Part shown: in pieces, positions 1,462-12,043 of the stretch
Layout of the letters: every line of letters begins with the position of its first letter
Position numbering within the stretch: position 1 is the stretch's first letter
Source: Gemmatimonadota bacterium
GTDB lineage: Bacteria > Gemmatimonadota > Gemmatimonadetes > Gemmatimonadales > GWC2-71-9
Length of the DNA: 12,043 bases
Direction: 5' to 3'
Assembly (NCBI GenBank): GCA_036679645.1
Contig: JAZDCY010000021.1
Location: 1-12,043 of the forward strand
Position numbers and translations under genes: made by a program
Notes under the pieces: generated by a model
Seen by the model: the letters and a program-made list of their open reading frames with translations, nothing else
What the model was told of the DNA's origin: nothing
Databases searched by the model: none

Positions 1462-1496
1462 ACCGCTTACTGCTCACCGCTCACTGCTCACCTACT
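1462..1496. repeat. Heptamer tandem repeat (ACYGCTY x4 plus one degenerate copy)
   Basis: accgctt-actgctc-accgctc-actgctc-acctact, abutting the SusD stop codon. Confidence 0.7.
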
Positions 1497-2898
1497 AGCA
1501 TCCGGTAGCCGGCGCGTTCGCCACCCGAGCATCACACTCCGATACCGGAAACGGGAACCTCACGTGTACGGCGTGACTGGGCAGGTCCACCGGTAGCTGA
1601 TCCAGCCGGCCGTAGTGCCGGGCGTCCAGCCACGAGAAGCCACCCTCCCACAGCAGTGAGTAGCGCTTGTTGTAGAGCAACTCGTCGAGCTGCTCGGTGG
1701 GAGTAAGCGCCGCCCACGCAGCCACCGTGATCGGATCCAATCCTCCAGCGGTCGTACGGATGAGGTTGATGTCGGCGAGCGCGGCGGCGGGCGTGCCGTT
1801 TCCGATATTCGCTTCCGCCCGCAGAAGGATCAGCTCCTCGTTCCGGATGATGGGAACGGGCGCAGACAGGCTCGAGTAGACCGTGAAACCGTAGATCGTG
1901 TTGATATCCTGCACGGTCACCGTGTCGTCGAGCACCTTCACTTTCGACGTGAACCGATCGTCGAGTTCACCGTCGCCCCTGAGTTGCGCGTTGTCCGCAA
2001 GATCTGGGTGTCCGAAGAGGTCCGACGGATTCGGGTCGAACAACCGGTTGGGCTGATCGCCGGATCCGGTGCTGAACGAATGGAAGACCCCCATGGTGAG
2101 CGAACCCGCGGGGTCGATGAACGACCCGCCCAGCGCGGTGAGCGCGTCTCCCCACTTGTCCTGATAGACCGACACTCGCGCCCGTAGGGCCCGGTTAAAG
2201 GTGAGGAAGCTTGCTGGATCGTCGAATCCGGCAAAGCCGCTCGTGAGGGCAAATCCGCTAGCGAAGGTCGCTCCGGCAGCTCCCAAGTCCGTCGCCGCAT
2301 CGTCCAGCAAAGTCTCGATATGCGTGAAGACTTCCGCCTTCGAGGCAATTGCGGCCGGCGGATCCAGCGCATCGAGACCTACGTCTACTTCGATTGGCGC
2401 ACCGTTGTCATCCCGCGTGTTGATCACGATCAGGAAGTCCAGTGCCTGGATCGTCCTGGCAAAGCCGTTCAATCCGGCCACTTCCTCCGCGGTGAACCCG
2501 ATATCGGTGCCGTTTTCCAGCGCGTTCAGTACGATGTTCGCGTTCCGGATATTGCGGTACGGATTGGTCCACAGGTTGCCGCCAAACGCCGGGCTTCCGC
2601 CGTCGAGCGGACCGATCAGCATCTCGGTAACGAACCGCGGATCGGCCGCGTCGAAGTTGTAGCCCTCACGCCCGATGATACCGAGCAGCGCAACATAGTC
2701 GTTACGGTTGGCGATATCGTCTCGCGTGCCGAACAGGAGACCCTGCGCCGCGGTGATGACCGCTCCGCGGCTCGGGTTGGTCTGCAACTCGTTCAGATCG
2801 CCGTTGTTGAAGTCGCCGACGTCGAGCGTCGTGCACCCGGCGAAGAGAAGGGCTCCCGCGAGCAGCGAGAGGGCCTTCCGTGTCATGCCTTTCGTCAT
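1495..2898 (-). CDS. RagB/SusD family nutrient-uptake outer-membrane lipoprotein
   Basis: Signal peptide with lipobox (MTKGMTRKALSLLAGALLFAG-C). SusD C-terminal motifs PIIRNEELILLRAEA and ELLYNKRYSLLWEGGFSWLDAR. Lies directly downstream of SusC. Start placed at ATG 2898 after GAGGGA; ATG 2886 is an alternative. Confidence 0.92.
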   Translation of the reverse strand: MTKGMTRKALSLLAGALLFAGCTTLDVGDFNNGDLNELQTNPSRGAVITAAQGLLFGTRDDIANRNDYVALLGIIGREGYNFDAADPRFVTEMLIGPLDGGSPAFGGNLWTNPYRNIRNANIVLNALENGTDIGFTAEEVAGLNGFARTIQALDFLIVINTRDDNGAPIEVDVGLDALDPPAAIASKAEVFTHIETLLDDAATDLGAAGATFASGFALTSGFAGFDDPASFLTFNRALRARVSVYQDKWGDALTALGGSFIDPAGSLTMGVFHSFSTGSGDQPNRLFDPNPSDLFGHPDLADNAQLRGDGELDDRFTSKVKVLDDTVTVQDINTIYGFTVYSSLSAPVPIIRNEELILLRAEANIGNGTPAAALADINLIRTTAGGLDPITVAAWAALTPTEQLDELLYNKRYSLLWEGGFSWLDARHYGRLDQLPVDLPSHAVHVRFPFPVSECDARVANAPATGC

Positions 2899-2927
2899 GA
2901 TTTCATCCCTCGTGTGCCACAGCACGG

Positions 2928-5867
2928 TTAGAGCCCCAAATCGATTGAGAACCACCAGCTTCGACTCGGCGGGAACGGCGCCACATCGATGTTTCGGGCA
3001 ATGTTCTGATTGCCGAAATTACTGACCTCGGGATCGTGCCCCGAATAGCCACTCGCCGTGAACAGGTTCCGCCCGCTGATCGAGACCCGCGCGAATCGCG
3101 CCCCGCCAAACAGGCCCTGGGTGATACTCTGCGGTAGATCGTAGGAGATGGTGAGCTCGCGCAGCTTCAGGAAGGTGGCATCCTCGATGTAGAGACCCGC
3201 CTGGCTTCCAAAGCCGGCCAAACGGCGCTCCCCGCGCAGCTGCCCATCCGCTTCGACCACATCGTAGTCAAACGTATTCGCGCCGAAATCGTAGAGCAGT
3301 TTCGTCAGGTTGATGATGTCTCCACCCTGCTGCCAATCGAAATGAGTGAAAAAATGGAACGAGCCGAACTGGATGTCGTTGATGAACCCGACCTTGAAGT
3401 CGGGATTCGCGTCACCCAACGGCACGACGACCACATCTCCTGCGGCGGTCGTGTCGTTACCCACAATCTGCGATGCGGATTTGCCCGGCTCGACGCGGAA
3501 CGCGCCCAGCGACGTGCCGAATCCGCCGGTGAGGAATGGCGGAACGTCCGGCGGCAGCGAAGTGATCTGACTGCGGTTCAACCCGAAAGTGGTGCGGAAC
3601 ACCCAGCTGAAGTCCGCCCGCTGCACCGGCACGATGGCCAGGGCGACCTCGAGACCGTTCACCCGCATGCTGCCGCCGTTGAAGATGTTTGTCGCAAACC
3701 CGGTCGACGGCGCTACCGCGCGCTGGAGCAGCAGGTCCGAAATGCTCTTGTGGTAGGCCGTCAACTCGAGCGTCGCACGGTTGTTGGCGAACGTCACATC
3801 GACACCGCCCTCAATCTCGCTCTGCCGCTCGGGCTGGAGATCTTCCGCTCCGACCGTGCCCTGCACCACCAGCGTCGGCAGACCCTCGATGTTCTGGCGC
3901 GGCGAGACCGGTGTGAATTTCTGCCCGTACAGCGGCTGGTTACCCGACTGGCCGTAGGCTATGCGGACCTTCAGGCCATCGCCGAGCCGATAGGACGAAG
4001 CGAGCTTGGGGTAGAAGAACAGCTCATCCGGATCGCCGTTGTTGGAACTCTGGTCACCGCGGATTCCGGCCGTGAGGAGCAGCCGGTCCTGCATGGTGAG
4101 CACCTCTTCCTGGACGTAGAAGCCGAGATCCTCAACCCGCAGCCGCAGCTCCGTGACGCCAATGTTGGTTCCGGCATTCACGATTCCCAGGCCGCCCGAG
4201 AGGTTGTTACTGACGATACGGGCGGTCCGCAGGTCACGCGTCTCGTACTGGAGACCGGCGGATGTCGTTGCCGAAAACGCGCCATCCTCGGGCGTGAATT
4301 GGTAGACGATATTCCCGCTCAGGTTGATGTTCAGGTTATTGGAGTTACTCAGGAGTGATGTCCCGGGCTGCCCACCAATACGCTCGAACTGCAGCTCGGG
4401 CGGGAAAAGCAGCGAGTTCTCCTGTGTGAAATAGTCCGCACCGGCCACCCCGATCACCCGGAGCCAATGGCGGGCATTACGCACCGCATCGTACTCGAGA
4501 CGCGCACTCCCGAACAGGCGGTAGACGTCCTCATCGTTCGTCATGAGCGCCGCCGTCTGGAGCGGGTTGCTCTCGATAAAAGGATTGTCCGGGAAGAAGC
4601 CCTGCGCGTCGGGGCGGAGATCGACAAAATTGGGCGTGAACGGGTACACCATGAACCAGCTCACACCGGCATTGTCGTTGTTGCTGAGCCCGCGGTTTGC
4701 CAACGTATGCGTGATGTTCGTCCCGAGTGAGAGGTTCCACCGGTCGCCGAACCGCTGGTCGAGGTTCACGCGCAGGCTCTGCCGCTCGAAGCCGGTATTC
4801 TCGACGATGCCCGCGTCGTCCTTCCATACTCCCGACACGAAATACCGCGTGTTCTCTGAACCGCCACTGATGCTGGCAGCCGTCTCGAACGACAGGTCAC
4901 TCTGACCGGCGAGCAGATCTTCCAGATCGAAGGAAACGCCAGGCGTATAGGAGTCGGCCGCGGAGGGCCCAAAGGCGTCGATCGCCTCCTGCTCGGTCTC
5001 GAACACGCGTGAGCCGATCTTGTTCGACAGACTGTAGAAGCCAAACCGCTGCGAGAAGTTGATCTGAGGCCGGCCCACGCTCCCGCGGCGCGTGTTGATG
5101 ATGACCACGCCGTTCGAGGCCTTGGAGCCATAGATTGCCGATGCCGCCGCACCCTTGAGGACCTCGATGCTCTCTATGTCGTAGGGATTGAGGTCGGCGA
5201 TCCGGTTGACCTGCGCGTCCTGGGTGAGCGCCGGGTTCGACCCGCCGCTCGCCCGCGTGACCGCGTTCTGGTTGGACGGAATCGCCACGTCACTGATGAT
5301 GATCCCGTCTACGACATAAAGCGGTGTCGAGGCACCGATGATCGATGTCACACCCCGCAGTTGGATCTGTGCCCCGCCGCCAGGAGCGCCCGAGTTGGTT
5401 TGGATATCAGCGCCCGGCACCTTGCCCTGGAGAGCGTGCTCGATGCTCTGCGCCGGCACCCGCTCGATGTCAGCGCGGCGCACCGTCGAGACCGCGTTGG
5501 CCAGATTGCGCCGCCGAATGCCGGTCGCCTGGCCGGTTACCACGATCTCCTCGAGCCTGAACACGTCCCGCCGGAGCCGAACCTGTACCACGTTCTGCCC
5601 AACACCGACGCGCACCTCGTGGCGTTGGAAGCCTATGCTCGTGATGACGAGCACGACATCGCGGGCCGGAGCGCCGATAGAGAACGTCCCATCGCGAATG
5701 ATGGGGGCCTCGAGCGTCGTGCCCTGCACCACGACGCGGCCGCCCGCGATCGGAGCGCCCGAGAGGCTATCCGTCACCTGGCCCGTAATGATCCGGGCCT
5801 GGGCGGATGCCTCGCCGACGCCCGCTGCGAAGAGCAGCACGGCGATAAACAGAAAACCTCGCTTCAT
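2928..5867 (-). CDS. SusC/RagA family TonB-dependent outer-membrane transporter
   Basis: Signal peptide ending ASA-Q, then an N-terminal CarboxypepD_reg-like domain and TonB box-like EEIVVTG. Plug motifs PLYVVDG and DLNPYDIESIEVLKGAAASAIYGSKASNGVVIINTRRG, later LQPE motif, terminal beta-strand WWFSIDLGL. Strong SD GAGGAGG. Confidence 0.96.
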   Translation of the reverse strand: MKRGFLFIAVLLFAAGVGEASAQARIITGQVTDSLSGAPIAGGRVVVQGTTLEAPIIRDGTFSIGAPARDVVLVITSIGFQRHEVRVGVGQNVVQVRLRRDVFRLEEIVVTGQATGIRRRNLANAVSTVRRADIERVPAQSIEHALQGKVPGADIQTNSGAPGGGAQIQLRGVTSIIGASTPLYVVDGIIISDVAIPSNQNAVTRASGGSNPALTQDAQVNRIADLNPYDIESIEVLKGAAASAIYGSKASNGVVIINTRRGSVGRPQINFSQRFGFYSLSNKIGSRVFETEQEAIDAFGPSAADSYTPGVSFDLEDLLAGQSDLSFETAASISGGSENTRYFVSGVWKDDAGIVENTGFERQSLRVNLDQRFGDRWNLSLGTNITHTLANRGLSNNDNAGVSWFMVYPFTPNFVDLRPDAQGFFPDNPFIESNPLQTAALMTNDEDVYRLFGSARLEYDAVRNARHWLRVIGVAGADYFTQENSLLFPPELQFERIGGQPGTSLLSNSNNLNINLSGNIVYQFTPEDGAFSATTSAGLQYETRDLRTARIVSNNLSGGLGIVNAGTNIGVTELRLRVEDLGFYVQEEVLTMQDRLLLTAGIRGDQSSNNGDPDELFFYPKLASSYRLGDGLKVRIAYGQSGNQPLYGQKFTPVSPRQNIEGLPTLVVQGTVGAEDLQPERQSEIEGGVDVTFANNRATLELTAYHKSISDLLLQRAVAPSTGFATNIFNGGSMRVNGLEVALAIVPVQRADFSWVFRTTFGLNRSQITSLPPDVPPFLTGGFGTSLGAFRVEPGKSASQIVGNDTTAAGDVVVVPLGDANPDFKVGFINDIQFGSFHFFTHFDWQQGGDIINLTKLLYDFGANTFDYDVVEADGQLRGERRLAGFGSQAGLYIEDATFLKLRELTISYDLPQSITQGLFGGARFARVSISGRNLFTASGYSGHDPEVSNFGNQNIARNIDVAPFPPSRSWWFSIDLGL

Positions 5868-6127
5868 GGTCCCTCCTCAGGTCGAGCGAAAGTGCGAGTC
5901 CGGAGGCGGGGAACGCCGGTGGCGATTGCATCAATTGCATATGGCGTCCCTGACACCGCACGCACCGACTGCTAGCGGAGCAACGTCGAAGGACGCACCT
6001 AAAGAGACGATGAAGTAAAGATGAACTTTGAGGAGTAATCCGCTCGTGTATTGCCTATGTGAACAACAATGTCGCCGTTTCGAGGATTACAGTTGAAAAA
6101 CGCGAGGGGGTCGGCGGAACGGTTGGG

Positions 6128-6769
6128 TCAGCGGCCTAATCTGATGCCGAGCGCTATTTGCTCGACGGTTTCGCGGCGGGTCCCACCGCCAAGCTCCGCG
6201 TGTTCTGTTCGGTAGCGGAGGAGGAAGCCCACGGGTGCGCCCGAGAGGCGGATCTCCAGGCCGCCGTCGAGTCCGTATCCACTGTCGAGTGCTTCTGCCA
6301 CATTGAGATCGGCGCCGAGTACGCGCCACCCCTCCAGATATCCGGTCACGGCCGGCAACAGCGCGGCGCCCAAACGGAGACGCCCCTCCCACATCAACCA
6401 ACGCTCCGTGCCGCTCGGCTCCACGTACGCTCGCACGTGCGGCCCCACGCCGAAGGAGATCCATCGAGCGGGTTGCACGACGACAAACGCCTCTCCTTCT
6501 ACGAAATCCTGATCGATGAGAGGGCTGTCGCCGGTGAGGTGTCCCTGGTGATACCGCAGGATCAGCGATACGGACTGAACCCGTACCCGGCCCTCGATTC
6601 CAAATGCGGCCCCGGTCGCCGTGGCTGTCGTCCCGGACTCACGCGTCAGGCGCAGCGACATCGCGGTGGCGCCGACTTCGAAGGTCTGGGTTGTCGCGGA
6701 CCGCGGCGTCAGCAGCGCGATTACCCCAACCAGTGCGACGATGCATGCGGTCCGGCCGCTAGCGATCAC
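6128..6769 (-). CDS. Hypothetical secreted protein, probable small outer-membrane beta-barrel
   Basis: N-terminal signal peptide followed by many alternating amphipathic strands (FGIEGRVRV, ISFGVGPHVRAY, VTGYLEGWR, GYGLDGGLEIRL, QIALGIRLGR). GTG start overlaps the upstream stop by 11 nt. Confidence 0.7.
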   Translation of the reverse strand: MIASGRTACIVALVGVIALLTPRSATTQTFEVGATAMSLRLTRESGTTATATGAAFGIEGRVRVQSVSLILRYHQGHLTGDSPLIDQDFVEGEAFVVVQPARWISFGVGPHVRAYVEPSGTERWLMWEGRLRLGAALLPAVTGYLEGWRVLGADLNVAEALDSGYGLDGGLEIRLSGAPVGFLLRYRTEHAELGGGTRRETVEQIALGIRLGR

Positions 6770-7808
6770 GATCGATGATCTGCACTGGTTCGCTCTGGAT
6801 GGTCACGCTCGCCTGCTCGCGACGGAGCCGATTCTCCTCCATCACAGCCTGAACCCGCAGGCGCCACGCGGAGCGCACGGCCTCATTGGCCACAACGTTG
6901 TCGGGAATTGATTTGCCGGGGCGCTGCTGCAGGAATCCGACGAACCCGACAATTGCGACCGCTCCACCCACGCCAAACCGTGCGGCGGTCAACTCTGCCC
7001 CGCTTGCCAAACTGGACGAGAGTCCGACGACCGCGGCGCCGATGCCGATGCCCCCGATGAGCGCCTCGAGGCCGGCGCCGCTCCCTAGTCGCTCGGGGAG
7101 GAGGGCCCCGGGGTCAGGTCCCGGAGGATGGGGTAACGTATCTTGCGGAATGACGACGACGTCGAGTGGGACCCGGACGAGCCGTACTACAGCGCCCGAG
7201 GCACCGGTTGTCTGCACGGCCAGAACGTACCGCCCGCTCGGTACCAGAGTCCCGTCGGGGCGGCGGGCGTCCCATTCGAGCCGCAGACTGTCGCTGATTG
7301 GGCCGTCGTACACTGTGCGCACGACCGTTCCACCTGGCTGCTGGATACTCGCCATCACCTGTGAGAACGAACTCACGATCACCCAGGGCCGAAATCCCGA
7401 AGCACCGGGGGTAAACTCAGATATTCCCGGTACGTCAACGAGCGCGACCTTGGTCGTGAGACGAACGGATTCAAAGACGTCGGCGACCTCGGGCGGGAAA
7501 ACCAGCGGGTCGAGCCGTCGGCGCGGGTCGTGGCGTACCAATTGGCGGAACGCAGCGCGGGATGAATCCGAGTTACCGCGGATGACTTCGGTGGCCCCGA
7601 GATACGTCAGGGCTCGTGCATAGTCGCGGAACCCGAGGGAATCGGCGCCCGCGGCTAGTCCTCGGCGGAGCAGACCGGCGGCAGCGGAGAGTTCCAGGTT
7701 CTCGTAGGCGCTGACGCCAGAGGCAACGAGATCTGAGGCGCTCTGTGCGTGGGCCGGTGCCCCCGCGACGCCGAGCGCGACCGCGGCGAGCAGGCCGCGT
7801 CGCGTCAC
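6759..7808 (-). CDS. Secreted/membrane protein: TPR-like helices + FlgD-type Ig-like domain + Gly-rich hydrophobic hairpin
   Basis: Signal peptide (MTRRGLLAAVALGVAGAPAHA-Q). TPR-like ARALTYLGA...SRAAFRQLVRHDP...LDPLVFPPEV. FlgD_ig-like signature VVRTV...LEWDARRPDGTLVPSGRYVLAV. Two Gly-rich hydrophobic segments near the C-terminus. GTGA overlap with the kinase stop. Confidence 0.8.
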   Translation of the reverse strand: MTRRGLLAAVALGVAGAPAHAQSASDLVASGVSAYENLELSAAAGLLRRGLAAGADSLGFRDYARALTYLGATEVIRGNSDSSRAAFRQLVRHDPRRRLDPLVFPPEVADVFESVRLTTKVALVDVPGISEFTPGASGFRPWVIVSSFSQVMASIQQPGGTVVRTVYDGPISDSLRLEWDARRPDGTLVPSGRYVLAVQTTGASGAVVRLVRVPLDVVVIPQDTLPHPPGPDPGALLPERLGSGAGLEALIGGIGIGAAVVGLSSSLASGAELTAARFGVGGAVAIVGFVGFLQQRPGKSIPDNVVANEAVRSAWRLRVQAVMEENRLRREQASVTIQSEPVQIIDRDR

Positions 7809-9313
7809 GGCGCTATCGGTTCCAACACGATGTTGGTGAGTCGCAGCTCCTCGCCCGACGTCACCTGTACCGTCCGCTCGAACGCGACGAACCCATCGCG
7901 TTCGATCCGAATCACGTGCCTACCGGGCGGGACCGCGATATTCGCGCGCGGTGTGTTTCCGATCTGGCGGCCGTCGACGAACAGGACGCCCCACGGACGC
8001 GAACTCACGAAGAGTGTTGCGGGACTGCTGCTAACCGGCCGTGACTCCCGGGCCGGTGCTCGCTCTGGAGTTGGAGTAACCGGTCGCCGCGTTAGCGAGT
8101 CTGCTACCGCCGGTGTGACGATGGCGGGCGGAGGCGTGGGTTCGTCGAGCGTGGGCCGTGCGAACCGGGGCATTGGTGCCGGTGCGGGGTCGGCGTCGGC
8201 GAACAGCCTCGCAATGCGCGGGTCGCGCAGCCCGGTAACCACGGTGGCTGCGGCGGCAGCGACGAGCAGGACGACCGTCAACACCTTCCATGGGACTCGT
8301 GATCGAGATCTCGGGACGGTGACCACTGACGGGGACCGGCTGGGCCGCTCGCCTGCCAGGAGACCGGAATTCGCCACGTCTCCTCCCGAGAGGACAGCGA
8401 CGAAATCCAGGACGCTCTTGTGGCGACCCGACGGTTCCCGCGAAAGGGCCCGCTCGACGGCGTCAGCCACTGCTGGGGCCATTCGATCACGGCGGATGGA
8501 GAGAGGTGGGGGCGTATCCGGCACGTCCGTCTGGAGATCTGGGTCTGGGTTCCACGACGGACGAACGGACGCGCCGGTCAGGAACATATGCGCCACGGCG
8601 GCGAGGGAGAATTGGTCGGCGACAGGGCCGACGTGGCGCCGGTCGAACTGCTCCGGTGCCATGAACCCCGGCGAAAGCAGGCGCCGCCACTCAGGTGCCG
8701 CGCCACCCGCGCGCGCCACACTATGAATGATCCCCACATCACTCAGCCGCGCCCATCCCTCAGCATCCACCAGGATATTCGAAGGCTTCACATCCCCGTG
8801 GACCACCCCGTGCCGATGGACGTATTCCAGTCCGCTGGCGAGCTGTTCGAGCAGCTCGAGGCACGGCTCGAGTTCCATGGCCCCCGCGTCCTGCAATACG
8901 GCAGTCAGGGTACGTCCCTTCATCGCATCCATGGAGTACCAGAGCAGCGAACGCGACAGGCCGTACTTCAACACCGGGACGATGTGCGGGTGGCGAAGAC
9001 CCATTGCCGCCACTGCCGATTGCTCGAATCGCTGCAGCACCTCCCCGTCCACCGGGCCGGGAAGTGGCAGGAGGCGGAGCGATACGAGCCGTTCCTCTTC
9101 CAGATCGCGGGCCAGGTAGAGGATCGAGCGCGCCTCCCGTCGCAGGAGTACCTGGAACTGGAAGCGGCCCTCCAGCTCGCTCTGAATTGTCTCCTGGATC
9201 TCGTCGGCGATTGGCTGTTGGACGATCACGCCGCCCGCCGCAGAGTATCCGCAGACCGGACACTTCTGAGACTCTTCGGAGATTTGCGCAACCGAACAAC
9301 GTGGACAGATCAT
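7805..9313 (-). CDS. Hanks-type Ser/Thr kinase-like membrane protein (zinc ribbon - kinase - TM - Pro-rich linker - PEGA), probably a pseudokinase
   Basis: CPRC-x11-CPVC at the N-terminus. Kinase subdomains LRHPHIVPV, HGDVKPSNILV, FMAPEQ, ADQFSLA, ALSREPSGR. TM WKVLTVVLLVAAAAATVVTGL. PEGA signature LFVSSRPWGVLFVDGRQIGNTP...VPPGRHVIRIERDGF. SD-like AAAGGT. Confidence 0.92.
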   Translation of the reverse strand: MICPRCSVAQISEESQKCPVCGYSAAGGVIVQQPIADEIQETIQSELEGRFQFQVLLRREARSILYLARDLEEERLVSLRLLPLPGPVDGEVLQRFEQSAVAAMGLRHPHIVPVLKYGLSRSLLWYSMDAMKGRTLTAVLQDAGAMELEPCLELLEQLASGLEYVHRHGVVHGDVKPSNILVDAEGWARLSDVGIIHSVARAGGAAPEWRRLLSPGFMAPEQFDRRHVGPVADQFSLAAVAHMFLTGASVRPSWNPDPDLQTDVPDTPPPLSIRRDRMAPAVADAVERALSREPSGRHKSVLDFVAVLSGGDVANSGLLAGERPSRSPSVVTVPRSRSRVPWKVLTVVLLVAAAAATVVTGLRDPRIARLFADADPAPAPMPRFARPTLDEPTPPPAIVTPAVADSLTRRPVTPTPERAPARESRPVSSSPATLFVSSRPWGVLFVDGRQIGNTPRANIAVPPGRHVIRIERDGFVAFERTVQVTSGEELRLTNIVLEPIAP

Positions 9314-9389
9314 GGTGACCTTTCAGCCGGCAAATCTAATACCGTTGCCCTGGAAGCGTGTGCCGGGTCACGGTCCACATCAAAGTAGC

Positions 9390-9464
9390 CTCTGCGCGCT
9401 CTACGGTAAGAGAACACCAGCTGCTCGTCGAGCGCGGTGATGTTTCGCCGCGGAGAGCGCAGAG
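9390..9464. repeat. Long imperfect intergenic inverted repeat (REP-like hairpin)
   Basis: CTCTGCGC (9390-9397) pairs with GCGCAGAG (9457-9464). The stem continues through CTCT/GGAG, CGG/CCG, CACC/GGTG and GCTC/GAGC. Confidence 0.6.
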
Positions 9465-9482
9465 ATGGGCTTCCTGAACTCA

Positions 9483-12043
9483 CTAGTTGTTTGGTGCACC
9501 GTTGCGAACCCAGGCGCGCACGATATCCCGCGTGCCGGCGCCGAGCACTCCCGCCGGAGGCATGTCACCGCTGCACGTGCCGAGTGTTCCACCGTCCATC
9601 CGAACGATCAGCACGCTACTCGCTTCGCTCGAGGCGACCACACGCACCTCGCCGGCATCGCACGATGCCGTAACCCCAACCAGAGCCGCGCGCGTGCTCG
9701 TGGGTGTTCCCTGGAGGTCGAGGCTGCCGTTCGCGATCACGTCTCCGTGGCAACTTGTGCAGTTCGCATCCCAGATGGGCTGCACGTGAGTAGCGTAGGA
9801 GTAGTTGGATGTTGCATTAAATGTGACTGCTCCGGCACCCGCTGTAGTTGCGTTCAGGGAATTGGCGAACGTGCCTGTACCCGACATAGTAGACCCGTCA
9901 CCCAGCGCCCAGGAGGTAGCGGTCGCGATCCCGCTCGCGTTGGTCGCCTGCACAGCATCCACCACCCCACCCCCGCCCGTGGCAACGGCGAAGGTGACCG
10001 ATTCACCGCTCACCGGGTTGCCGACTCCATCCTCGACGAGCACCGACGGTGCGGTGGCTACGTTCGCATCTACGAGAGCGGCCTGCCCGTCGCCGAGATC
10101 GATCGATATCGACGCCGCCGTTCCCGCCGAGAGCGTAATCGTGCCCGACGCGACGGTGCCTAGCCCCGTCGCGGCGAACGAGAGTGTGTAGCCACCCACC
10201 AAGCCCGTAATCGCAAACCCCGAGAACGTTGCGCTCCCATCGGTAAGGGTGGTGGCGGTCCCATTCGCGAGGGACGGTGTGCCACCGGGGTTCGTCAGAA
10301 TCGTCGCCGTGACCAACACACCCAGTTGGCTCACGGCGTTTCCTGTTCCGTCCTGCACCTGGATCACCGGCTGTTGGGTAAGCGCGATGCCACTCTGCCC
10401 CGCTGCCGATGGTGCCGTCGTGATACCCAACTGCGCCGCGGTACCCGCCGACAGGGTGATGGTCCCGGAGGTCGCCAATGTGAATCCGCCGCCAGCGAAG
10501 TTGAGCGTGTAGCCGCCGATCAACCCCGTTATGGCCAGCCCAGCGAAGGTCGCGCTGCCGTCAGCGAGAGTCGTGGCCGACGCACTGGTGAGACTCGGCG
10601 TGCCACCGGGATTGGTATTGATCGTCGCGGTGATGAGGGTGCCCAATTGGCTCACCGCATTCCCCGCGTTGTCCTGTACCTGGACGACCGGCTGTTGAGT
10701 CAGCGCGATCCCGCTTTGCCCAGCGGCCGATGGTGCCGTCGTGATGCCGAGCTGGGCCGCGGTCCCGGCTGACAACGTGATCGTACCCGACGTCGCAATC
10801 GTGAACCCGCCACCAGCGAAGTCGAGTGTGTAGCCACCGATCAAGCCCGTGATCGCCAGCCCCGCGAACGTGGCACTCCCATCCGCGATGGTGGTGGCCG
10901 TCGCACTCGCCAGGCTCGGCGTGCCACCCGGATTGGTATTGATCGTCGCGGTGATGAGGGTGCCCAATTGGCTCACCGCATTCCCCGCCCCATCCTGCAC
11001 CTGGACGACCGGCTGCTGCACGAGGGCGATGCCGCTCTGTCCGGCTGCCGATGGTGCCGTCGTGATACCCAACTGCGCCGCGGTCCCGGCCGACAGCGTG
11101 ATCGTCCCCGAGGTCGCCGTCGTGAGCACGCCGTCGTCGAAGTCGAGCGTGTAGCCGCCGATGAGACCCGTGATCGCGAGCCCCGCGAACGTCGCGCTAC
11201 CATCGGCTATCGTCGTGGCCGTGGCACTTGTTAGACTTGGGCTCCCACCCGGATTGGCGTTGATGGTCGCCGTAATCAGCGTCCCCAGCTGGGCTACAGC
11301 ATTCCCCGCCCCATCCTGTACCTGAATGACAGGCTGTGTGGTAAGCGCAATGCCGCTCTGGCCGGTACTCGAGGGGGCGGTCGTGATACCCAACTGCGCC
11401 GCGGTGCCAGCCGAGAGCGTGATCGTTCCCGACGTCGCCGTCGTGAGCACGCCGTCGTCGAAGTCGAGCGTGTAGCCGCCGATGAGACCTGTGATCGCGA
11501 GCCCCGCGAACGTCGCGCTACCATCGGCTATCGTGGTCGCCGTAGCACTCGTGAGACTTGGGCTCCCACCCGGATTGGCGTTGATAGTCGCCGTGATTAG
11601 CGTCCCTAGCTGGGCTACAGCATTCCCCGCCCCATCCTGTACCTGAATGACAGGCTGTGTGGTAAGCGCGATGCCGCTCTGGCTGGTACTCGAGGGGGCG
11701 GTCGTGATCCCTAACTGCGCCGCGGTGCCAGCCGAGAGCGTGATCGTTCCCGACGTCGCCGTCGTGAGCACGCCGTCGTCGAAGTCGAGCGTGTAGCCAC
11801 CGATCAAGCCCGTGATCGCCAGCCCCGCGAACGTGGCACTCCCATCCGCGATGGTGGTGGCGGTCGCACTCGCCAGGCTCGGCGTGCCACCCGGATTGGT
11901 ATTGATCGTCGCGGTGATGAGGGTGCCCAATTGGCTCACCGCATTCCCCGCATTGTCCTGTACCTGGACGACCGGCTGCTGAGTCAGCGCGATTCCGCTT
12001 TGGCCGGTACTCGAGGGGGCGGCTGTTATCCCTAACTGCGCCG
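9483..12043 (-). CDS. Large surface protein (5'-partial): tandem Ig-like repeats, Big_1-like domain and C-terminal monoheme c-type cytochrome domain
   Basis: The frame stays open past the ORF-track start at 11939 to the window edge (AQLGITAAPSSTGQSGIALTQQPVVQVQDNAGNAVSQ...). Repeats carry QPVxQVQDxxGNxV and GSATFxGLxITGxxGxYTLxF. C-terminal region has VQPIWDANCTSCH...MPP...IVRAWVRNGA. Confidence 0.92.
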   Translation of the reverse strand, partial: AQLGITAAPSSTGQSGIALTQQPVVQVQDNAGNAVSQLGTLITATINTNPGGTPSLASATATTIADGSATFAGLAITGLIGGYTLDFDDGVLTTATSGTITLSAGTAAQLGITTAPSSTSQSGIALTTQPVIQVQDGAGNAVAQLGTLITATINANPGGSPSLTSATATTIADGSATFAGLAITGLIGGYTLDFDDGVLTTATSGTITLSAGTAAQLGITTAPSSTGQSGIALTTQPVIQVQDGAGNAVAQLGTLITATINANPGGSPSLTSATATTIADGSATFAGLAITGLIGGYTLDFDDGVLTTATSGTITLSAGTAAQLGITTAPSAAGQSGIALVQQPVVQVQDGAGNAVSQLGTLITATINTNPGGTPSLASATATTIADGSATFAGLAITGLIGGYTLDFAGGGFTIATSGTITLSAGTAAQLGITTAPSAAGQSGIALTQQPVVQVQDNAGNAVSQLGTLITATINTNPGGTPSLTSASATTLADGSATFAGLAITGLIGGYTLNFAGGGFTLATSGTITLSAGTAAQLGITTAPSAAGQSGIALTQQPVIQVQDGTGNAVSQLGVLVTATILTNPGGTPSLANGTATTLTDGSATFSGFAITGLVGGYTLSFAATGLGTVASGTITLSAGTAASISIDLGDGQAALVDANVATAPSVLVEDGVGNPVSGESVTFAVATGGGGVVDAVQATNASGIATATSWALGDGSTMSGTGTFANSLNATTAGAGAVTFNATSNYSYATHVQPIWDANCTSCHGDVIANGSLDLQGTPTSTRAALVGVTASCDAGEVRVVASSEASSVLIVRMDGGTLGTCSGDMPPAGVLGAGTRDIVRAWVRNGAPNN
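10114..12043 (-). repeat. Intragenic tandem array of at least six 321-bp (107-aa) units
   Basis: The anchor encoding AQL recurs at 10429, 10750, 11071, 11392, 11713 and 12034, exactly 321 bp apart. Confidence 0.95.

Follow-up and report, generated by a model that had tools for sequence, protein, structure and literature searches.

The window analysed here is the whole of contig C15 (12,043 nt) of a 4.05-Mb Gemmatimonadota genome (G000), and it carries four co-oriented open reading frames (ORFs) on the minus strand that encode, in transcription order, a protein of immunoglobulin-like (Ig) repeats with a cytochrome, a kinase-like protein, a tetratricopeptide repeat (TPR) protein that we call the hub, and a small beta-barrel. 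An earlier note on this DNA had claimed that the last three genes are coupled by overlaps, that they follow the Ig/cytochrome ORF at a distance of 169 nt, and that their products span every compartment of the envelope. We found the overlaps (GTGA at 7805-7808 and 11 nt at 6759-6769) and the gap (9314-9482) in the sequence as described, and the placement of the products across all compartments holds as a prediction for what proved to be a conserved module.

Pfam recognised Pkinase (3.6e-24) and PEGA (2.2e-11) domains in the 502-aa kinase protein and, below the cut-off, FlgD_ig (1.4e-5) in the 349-aa TPR protein, while the 213-aa barrel gave no significant Pfam match. The positions of these features are collected in Table 1.

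Conservation of the module and its lipoprotein partner

Of 61 related genomes, the window's own included, 20 have the barrel and 26 the TPR protein. Over the phylum, the TPR profile matched 59 of 251 genomes (a tally that takes in one unpublished genome, G183): 52 of the 113 in the window's family, 6 in three other families and 0 in eight families. Homologues of hub and barrel carry Gemmatimonadota database labels, and in a wider library the hub family comprises at least 400 sequence clusters at E-values up to 1e-30; a pattern scan of GTDB contigs with a single hub protein as query returned one distant myxobacterial locus only. Three further kinase-TPR copies lie elsewhere in the same genome; the gene order of an active-kinase paralogue on contig C37 was confirmed.

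For gene neighbourhoods we took 20 of the 24 barrel loci outside the window's genome and 40 loci from the TPR match list (20 high-scoring and 20 lower-scoring, with long contigs favoured), which together with the four own copies gave 67 TPR genes. A TPR gene stood upstream of the barrel in 20/20 barrel-picked loci; the 42 TPR-picked genes had a barrel just downstream in 39 cases, a PEGA-ended gene just upstream in 37 and both in 34, the upstream ORF having a recognised kinase domain in 31. The module is thus syntenic across these loci, and its four linked genes are kept together in many Gemmatimonadota.

Overlaps of 1, 4 or 11 nt occur at 49 of the 54 kinase-to-TPR junctions and 46 of the 55 TPR-to-barrel junctions in the collected copies, and because the same overlap types recur at most junctions they are not a product of chance. 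In at least 28 other copies the junction equivalent to the 169-nt spacer has no gap, the genes abutting or overlapping. The module is probably co-transcribed. Scanning 5800-9600 for promoters and terminators revealed none, the count being about that of shuffled sequence and hence uninformative. We divided the copies by TPR-profile score, a threshold rather than a tree and one on which seed rows score high, into groups A (at least 300 bits), B (150-300) and C (below); the window's copy belongs to group (clade) A.

The complete genes upstream of module copies start with a lipobox, as judged by a simple pattern. By a fixed rule, an Ig-stalk or lipoprotein gene precedes 46 of the 56 barrel-bearing copies that could be assessed (contig ends cut off 6 more) and 0/5 barrel-less copies, and inspection by hand found such a gene in 6 of the 10 misses, which raises the count to 52/56. 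The link between the kinase, TPR and barrel genes and the large Ig protein, as proposed in the earlier note, is borne out by these counts.

Most upstream proteins in group A have a BACON-PPC-FN3 head, behind which come a stalk and a tip that varies; in group B the head is often one domain of about 100 aa, and group C proteins measure about 530 aa. Across copies the lipoprotein ranges from roughly 100 to more than 6,000 aa, the head being fixed and the tips variable. With thresholds of E up to 1e-90 for the group-A TPR and up to 1e-40 for the head, the 251 genomes contained both in 34 cases, the TPR alone in 6, the head alone in 1 and neither in 210; where a genome had seeded neither profile, the TPR was present in 16 of the 17 with a head.

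The window's Ig-repeat ORF is truncated by the contig end. This genome has one full group-A head only, on contig C54, and the repeat ORF that it starts is likewise incomplete, extending past the end of C54. The DNA of the last repeats on C54 reaches 84% identity to the window's repeats, and a 107-nt unitig common to both contig ends has a depth of 265 whereas depth is about 90 elsewhere, the pattern that a collapsed repeat should give. Were C54 and C15 joined in this way, the window lipoprotein would probably comprise 6,480 plus 852 residues or more, approximately 7,300 aa. The C54 head, too, has a lipobox by the simple pattern. In the six residues after the Cys it has a net charge of -1, most clade-A heads having 0. 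A frameshift in the C54 head was considered as a real lesion or phase switch and rejected, given that a depth-97 contig of the same sequencing run has 34 extra bases that restore the frame count; it is a false frameshift, due to a 34-nt assembly gap at L087:18506-18507 (C54).

The earlier note had also counted the cytochrome as part of the system. The window's cytochrome domain matches 19 of the 61 genomes and no other ORF in the module loci, and in 7 of 18 other cytochrome loci scanned it adjoins a different, 427-aa barrel-like family. We therefore rejected it as a core component: on this sequence evidence the cytochrome is a mobile, swappable C-terminal tip, shuffled among loci, and the conserved partner is the lipoprotein head. 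Elsewhere we observed a second module type (loci in Table 1), made up of an active kinase-transmembrane (TM)-Big_2 protein, Ig lipoproteins with the same cytochrome c tip, and a conserved barrel-like protein of 427-444 aa that has no Pfam match.

Table 1. Positions of the features in the window (unless another contig or locus is named)
Feature	Position	Strand	Remarks
Giant Ig-repeat protein, 3' part, 852 codons	9483..12043, open at contig end	-	about six 107-aa repeats, Big_1-like domain, cytochrome c tip
Monohaem cytochrome c tip	9486..9800	-	CxxCH from 9761; candidate distal Met near 9563
Spacer, 169 nt	9314..9482	.	no terminator-like or sigma-70-like site
Kinase protein, 502 aa	7805..9313	-	Zn-ribbon / pseudokinase / TM helix / Pro-rich linker / PEGA
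Degenerate kinase domain	8384..9166	-	without Gly-rich loop; beta3 Lys to Arg; HRD to HGD; DFG to DVG
Predicted inner-membrane helix of kinase protein	8228..8290	-
PEGA domain, predicted periplasmic	7814..8023	-	Pfam PF08308, 2.2e-11
Hub (TPR) protein, 349 aa	6759..7808	-	signal peptide, five-helix TPR, FlgD-like Ig, helical hairpin, 30-residue return helix, C-terminal strands
Gly/Ala-rich two-helix hydrophobic hairpin of hub, putative outer-membrane anchor	6927..7082	-
Barrel protein, 213 aa	6128..6769	-	signal peptide and predicted 10-stranded beta-barrel, OmpT/OpcA fold
Putative lipoprotein head of window protein	contig C54, Cys codon at 19408
Second module type	L119:1649-2932 (C77), L120:661-6730 (C52), L121:1098-4946 (C7)		also L100-L103, L105, L117

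Kinase, hub and barrel

The kinase domain of the window is degraded in the Gly loop, the beta3 Lys and the HRD and DFG motifs (Table 1), and in two same-genus orthologues the catalytic Asp is missing as well. We scored 52 kinase domains, 2 of 54 having been dropped as too short. In group A, 26 of 36 are without at least one of the catalytic Lys, Asp, Asn and Asp, 3 keep all four in degraded motifs and 7 are canonical, while in groups B and C all four residues are kept in 16/16. The 29 degenerate domains make up one side of a 100/100 branch that extends across two families (midpoint root, two long branches), and by this sequence analysis the window kinase belongs to an old degenerate clade. Its identification as a pseudokinase in the earlier note is supported, and outside-in signalling, which that note had also considered, is unlikely in the form of phosphorylation by the window copy.

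The kinase is dispensable in clade A, where repeated losses have removed the gene or its cytoplasmic domain and spared lipoprotein, hub and barrel: the inner-membrane kinase/PEGA gene is absent from five group-A copies; L061, L068 and L070 have TM-PEGA without a kinase domain; and L064 carries HisKA/HATPase in place of the Ser/Thr kinase domain. The five barrel-less kinase-hub copies all keep K/D/N/D. The module can be seen as two overlapping units that share the hub, one of kinase-PEGA and hub, which occurs alone with an intact kinase, and one of hub, barrel and lipoprotein, which occurs without a kinase gene.

Some neighbouring arrangements are unusual. At L064:10637-15865 a kinase-PEGA gene is followed by the HisKA/HATPase-TM-PEGA gene, hub and barrel, with no adjoining lipoprotein gene, and at L044:12072-18080 a 2,002-aa ORF has two Zn ribbons, one on either side of a long series of Ig-like repeats, and then a very degenerate kinase, a TM helix and PEGA. 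The window's genome has 100 kinase ORFs, many of them in runs about 3 kb apart (contigs C8, C7, C9 and C68).

In the model of the hub (predicted local distance difference test, pLDDT, 93.9), five TPR helices are followed by an Ig domain, then by a hairpin of two helices (mature 222-273), a helix of 30 residues and strands at the C-terminus. Given that these strands, from the order of the elements, appear to return to the Ig domain, both ends of the hairpin would lie on the Ig side. In 54 of 62 hub sequences it is the hairpin that holds the two most hydrophobic peaks, which average 1.9 and 1.65 on the Kyte-Doolittle scale, and a basic residue at the beginning of hairpin helix 2 is nearly invariant. 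Rough insertion energies for the hairpin helices have medians of about +1.8 and +2.2 kcal/mol, compared with +0.2 kcal/mol for the kinase TM helix; insertion was unfavourable for all 150 hairpins, and favourable for about half of 53 kinase helices. This low insertability fits, though it does not prove, helices that pass Sec and enter the outer membrane. The hairpin is probably an outer-membrane anchor, and the hub, previously described as an exported TPR/Ig protein, is probably membrane-anchored through this conserved hydrophobic hairpin rather than soluble.

Structure searches with the hub gave no whole-chain match, the matches covering the TPR or the Ig part only. An identity with the flagellar hook cap FlgD was rejected, the Ig domain alone matching (21.7 bits against a cut-off of 230) and the whole-chain TM-score being at most 0.23.

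The barrel was modelled with 10 strands (pLDDT 97.4). Its best fold matches were OmpT (Z 20.6, root-mean-square deviation (rmsd) 2.1, 182 residues aligned), a Dot/Icm-associated porin (Z 18.3, rmsd 2.6, 183 aligned) and OpcA (Z 17.2, rmsd 2.8, 182 aligned), with Foldseek in agreement on OpcA; identity to these three is 6-10%, and a PDB sequence search with the barrel profile yielded 0 matches at E up to 10. Omptin proteases rely on conserved Asp-Asp and Asp-His catalytic pairs. The 10 strands agree with an omptin, but no column exceeds 37% His in 51 barrels or 26% in 160 and there is no Pfam omptin match, and we rejected the barrel as an omptin protease. Relative to omptin and OpcA the module barrel shares the 10-stranded fold at 6-7% identity, is 60-80 residues shorter and has no conserved His.

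Conserved charged residues lie within the barrel strands, and the group A barrels have many of their most conserved positions toward the likely outer end, as a binding face would. We know of no protein-conducting barrel with fewer than 12 strands. Given its 10 strands, the modelled barrel is likely too narrow to export proteins, and the export role that the earlier note had allowed for is unlikely to be exercised through a channel of this OmpT/OpcA fold. A paralogous barrel at C37:17796-19466 lies behind three Ig-like domains and an Arg/Gly-rich linker, all in one fusion.

A proposed docking-and-tether reading and its rivals

We tentatively propose, at a little below an even chance, that the four genes form a docking-and-tether module for a giant surface Ig lipoprotein, derived from an active-kinase signalling module. 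The lipoprotein would acquire haem and disulphides in the periplasm and would reach the surface by the general LptD route; the genome carries LptD, on another contig, and Bacteroidota surface lipoproteins exit through LptD according to a recent preprint (bioRxiv 10.64898/2026.10.03.756453). The head of the lipoprotein would then bind the outer face of the barrel, the two helices of the hub would sit beside the barrel in the outer membrane, and the periplasmic TPR/Ig part of the hub would bind the PEGA domain that ends the Pro-rich linker, PEGA being linked through the inner membrane to the cytoplasmic kinase domain as the inner anchor. In the paralogous clades with an intact kinase, surface binding or load may be reported by phosphorylation, whereas in the window's clade, with catalysis decayed, the chain may act as a mechanical tether or a non-catalytic relay.

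A precedent that we count in favour of this proposal, and the closest layout known to us, is LptT-LptQ-LptR, in which a two-helix outer-membrane protein accompanies a small barrel whose outer loops hold a surface lipoprotein (bioRxiv 10.64898/2026.10.03.756453). There, too, the barrel and lipoprotein genes are neighbours; the likeness is one of layout. LptQ has 8 strands where the module barrel has 10 in its model, LptT is not described in the available text with TPR or Ig domains, and that text gives LptT-LptQ-LptR no inner-membrane kinase, whereas the module has one. Moreover, LptT-LptQ-LptR is bound to LptD and serves general export, whereas the module is patchy, multi-copy and paired with one lipoprotein.

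Several observations weigh against docking and tethering. In four copies (L037, L061, L064 and L066) hub and barrel stand without an adjacent lipoprotein gene; the five copies that keep lipoprotein, hub and barrel without an inner-membrane gene show that an inner tether is not obligatory; and operon duplication by itself explains matched partners. The window kinase retains the HRD Asp, the Asn and the DFG Asp, so that residual activity is possible. The E-value thresholds for co-occurrence were chosen after the data were seen, in genomes that are kin, the join of C54 and C15 is inferred, and the insertion energies are rough estimates. Basic residues clearly favour neither topology of the hairpin, and a net-negative charge over the six residues after the Cys, which marks lipoproteins for surface export in Bacteroidota, is present in only 2 of the 11 clade-A heads listed.

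It could instead be proposed that the module only signals, lipoprotein and barrel being the sensor and hub the adaptor, with the dead kinase as an allosteric relay that might, for instance, pair with any of the approximately 100 active kinases of the genome, and with no structural part in anchoring. The intact kinases of all clade B and C copies, the 7/36 clade A copies with canonical motifs, the kinase-hub pairs without barrel or lipoprotein, which keep K/D/N/D, and the histidine-kinase domain that can stand in for the Ser/Thr kinase all agree with this proposal, as do the 100 kinase ORFs of the genome and the retention of the pseudokinase fold and Zn ribbon over long branches. That the window's clade has repeatedly shed the cytoplasmic domain, or the gene altogether, and kept lipoprotein, hub and barrel makes signalling alone rather unlikely. 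We regard as unlikely, and marginally more so, a dedicated exporter, in which the hub hairpins form an oligomeric, alpha-helical outer-membrane pore, or hub and barrel are a cargo-specific accessory that docks on LptD, while the pseudokinase organises the complex as YukC/EssB does and the lipoprotein is cargo. Helical outer-membrane pores exist (Wza, VirB10), and a lipoprotein of such variable length with fixed head and variable tips is cargo-like. Pseudokinase hubs in secretion are described in two papers (PMC9600267; PMC12599244), and LptQ and LptR are required for export of some surface lipoproteins (bioRxiv 10.64898/2026.10.03.756453). On the other hand, the module has no ATPase or periplasmic chaperone gene, conserved charged residues lie in the 10 strands of its barrel, the lipoprotein-barrel linkage is as expected of an anchor, and five copies are without any inner-membrane gene.

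The hub might also be a two-pass inner-membrane partner of the kinase, the barrel being an independent small-molecule channel, adhesin or enzyme that is merely co-regulated. The hydropathy of the hairpin peaks and the basic residue starting helix 2 are in keeping with such a hub, and the nearest folds of the barrel are a protease and an adhesin. We consider this improbable, given that 0/150 hairpins were favourable for translocon insertion, compared with about half of the kinase helices, that hub and barrel stay together after loss of the kinase gene, and that an enzyme of omptin type would need a conserved His, which the barrel does not have.

Taken more broadly than the docking-and-tether proposal, the module could be a trans-envelope machine of a new class, phylum-wide, modular and receptor-kinase-like. 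Its outer-membrane part, an alpha-helical hub with a 10-stranded barrel of its own, would carry a surface lipoprotein that can be exchanged (100 to more than 7,000 aa, here haem-tipped) and would link this lipoprotein to a cytoplasmic output that can be exchanged too, be it an active kinase, a pseudokinase, a histidine kinase or nothing. In this lineage the machine would have ceased to be a sensor and become a mount or export aid that needs no energy, serving some of the largest lipoproteins of bacteria; we hold this reading as a whole to be possible, with the chances clearly against it. Either proposal bears on how giant lipoproteins are held on a diderm surface and on how outside events reach Ser/Thr kinases across two membranes, and the natural series of active, dead, missing and swapped kinases makes the question of signalling versus scaffold directly testable. 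Alpha-helical outer-membrane proteins are rare, only a few being known according to the preprint (bioRxiv 10.64898/2026.10.03.756453), and the module adds a family in which 400 sequence clusters or more carry a predicted outer-membrane hairpin, plus cognate small barrels.

Related systems and neighbouring genes

What is new here is the pseudokinase clade, the series of losses and swaps, the dependence between barrel and lipoprotein and the fold assignments; we found no paper on the module in the accessible part of the open-access literature, where PEGA is reported in unrelated conflict systems (PMC7159879).

YukC/EssB of type VIIb secretion resembles the window kinase in being a pseudokinase with one membrane pass, degraded in the Gly loop and the catalytic motifs, that serves as a trans-membrane scaffold (PMC9600267; PMC12599244). 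The module differs in its diderm host, its PEGA outer domain and its active-kinase paralogues, and the passages of the review that were searched name no Gemmatimonad or PEGA family, nor the pseudokinase clade described here (PMC12599244). An EssC ATPase or WXG100 protein was absent among the window genes and was not recognised by eye in the module loci, no genome-wide search having been made.

Slam, or type XI secretion, likewise encodes a TPR and an outer-membrane barrel beside a cognate surface lipoprotein. The Slam barrel has 14 strands. Slam is one chain and itself the translocon, whereas the module has TPR and barrel as separate genes, 10 strands, and a hairpin and kinase in addition; 0 of the 51 barrel members matched PF04575. 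The adjacent lipoprotein gene does agree with Slam, but on the separate genes, the 10-stranded model and the missing PF04575 match we rejected this identity.

The TagQ/R/S/T-PpkA-PppA-Fha1 pathway of the Pseudomonas aeruginosa H1 type VI secretion system (H1-T6SS) runs from an outer-membrane lipoprotein through a periplasmic relay to an inner-membrane Hanks kinase, elements that the module shares, although its kinase is degenerate and its barrel and hairpin are extra. The conserved gene set of the module includes no ATP-binding cassette (ABC) transporter, phosphatase, FHA or T6SS gene, no genome-wide search for these having been made.

In the myxobacterial locus L098, a lipoprotein-like gene is directly preceded by one whose product has a signal peptide, TPR, beta-sandwich and Gly-rich hairpin. 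The locus differs in having PEGA instead of the FlgD-like Ig domain, and no cognate barrel or kinase was seen in that one locus; against the hub, the TPR part alone aligns, and weakly (probability 7.5%). In L098 (Myxococcota) we noted a TPR and barrel-like fusion and the TPR-PEGA-hairpin gene upstream of a Cys-rich lipoprotein-like gene (5911-7113 and 9196-12047). TPR-PEGA-PEGA variants at L091:11584-13389, L092:4349-6249 and C61:91216-94668 bridge to this layout, the L091 variant being fused to a second TPR-Ig-hairpin unit.

In the window itself, an ordinary SusC/SusD pair (1495-5867) lies on the same strand 260 nt downstream of the barrel and is not a conserved neighbour of the module among the loci listed. 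Beyond it, at 267-1387, an alpha/beta hydrolase gene overlaps a 93-aa membrane-anchored Cys-rich ORF without a family match.

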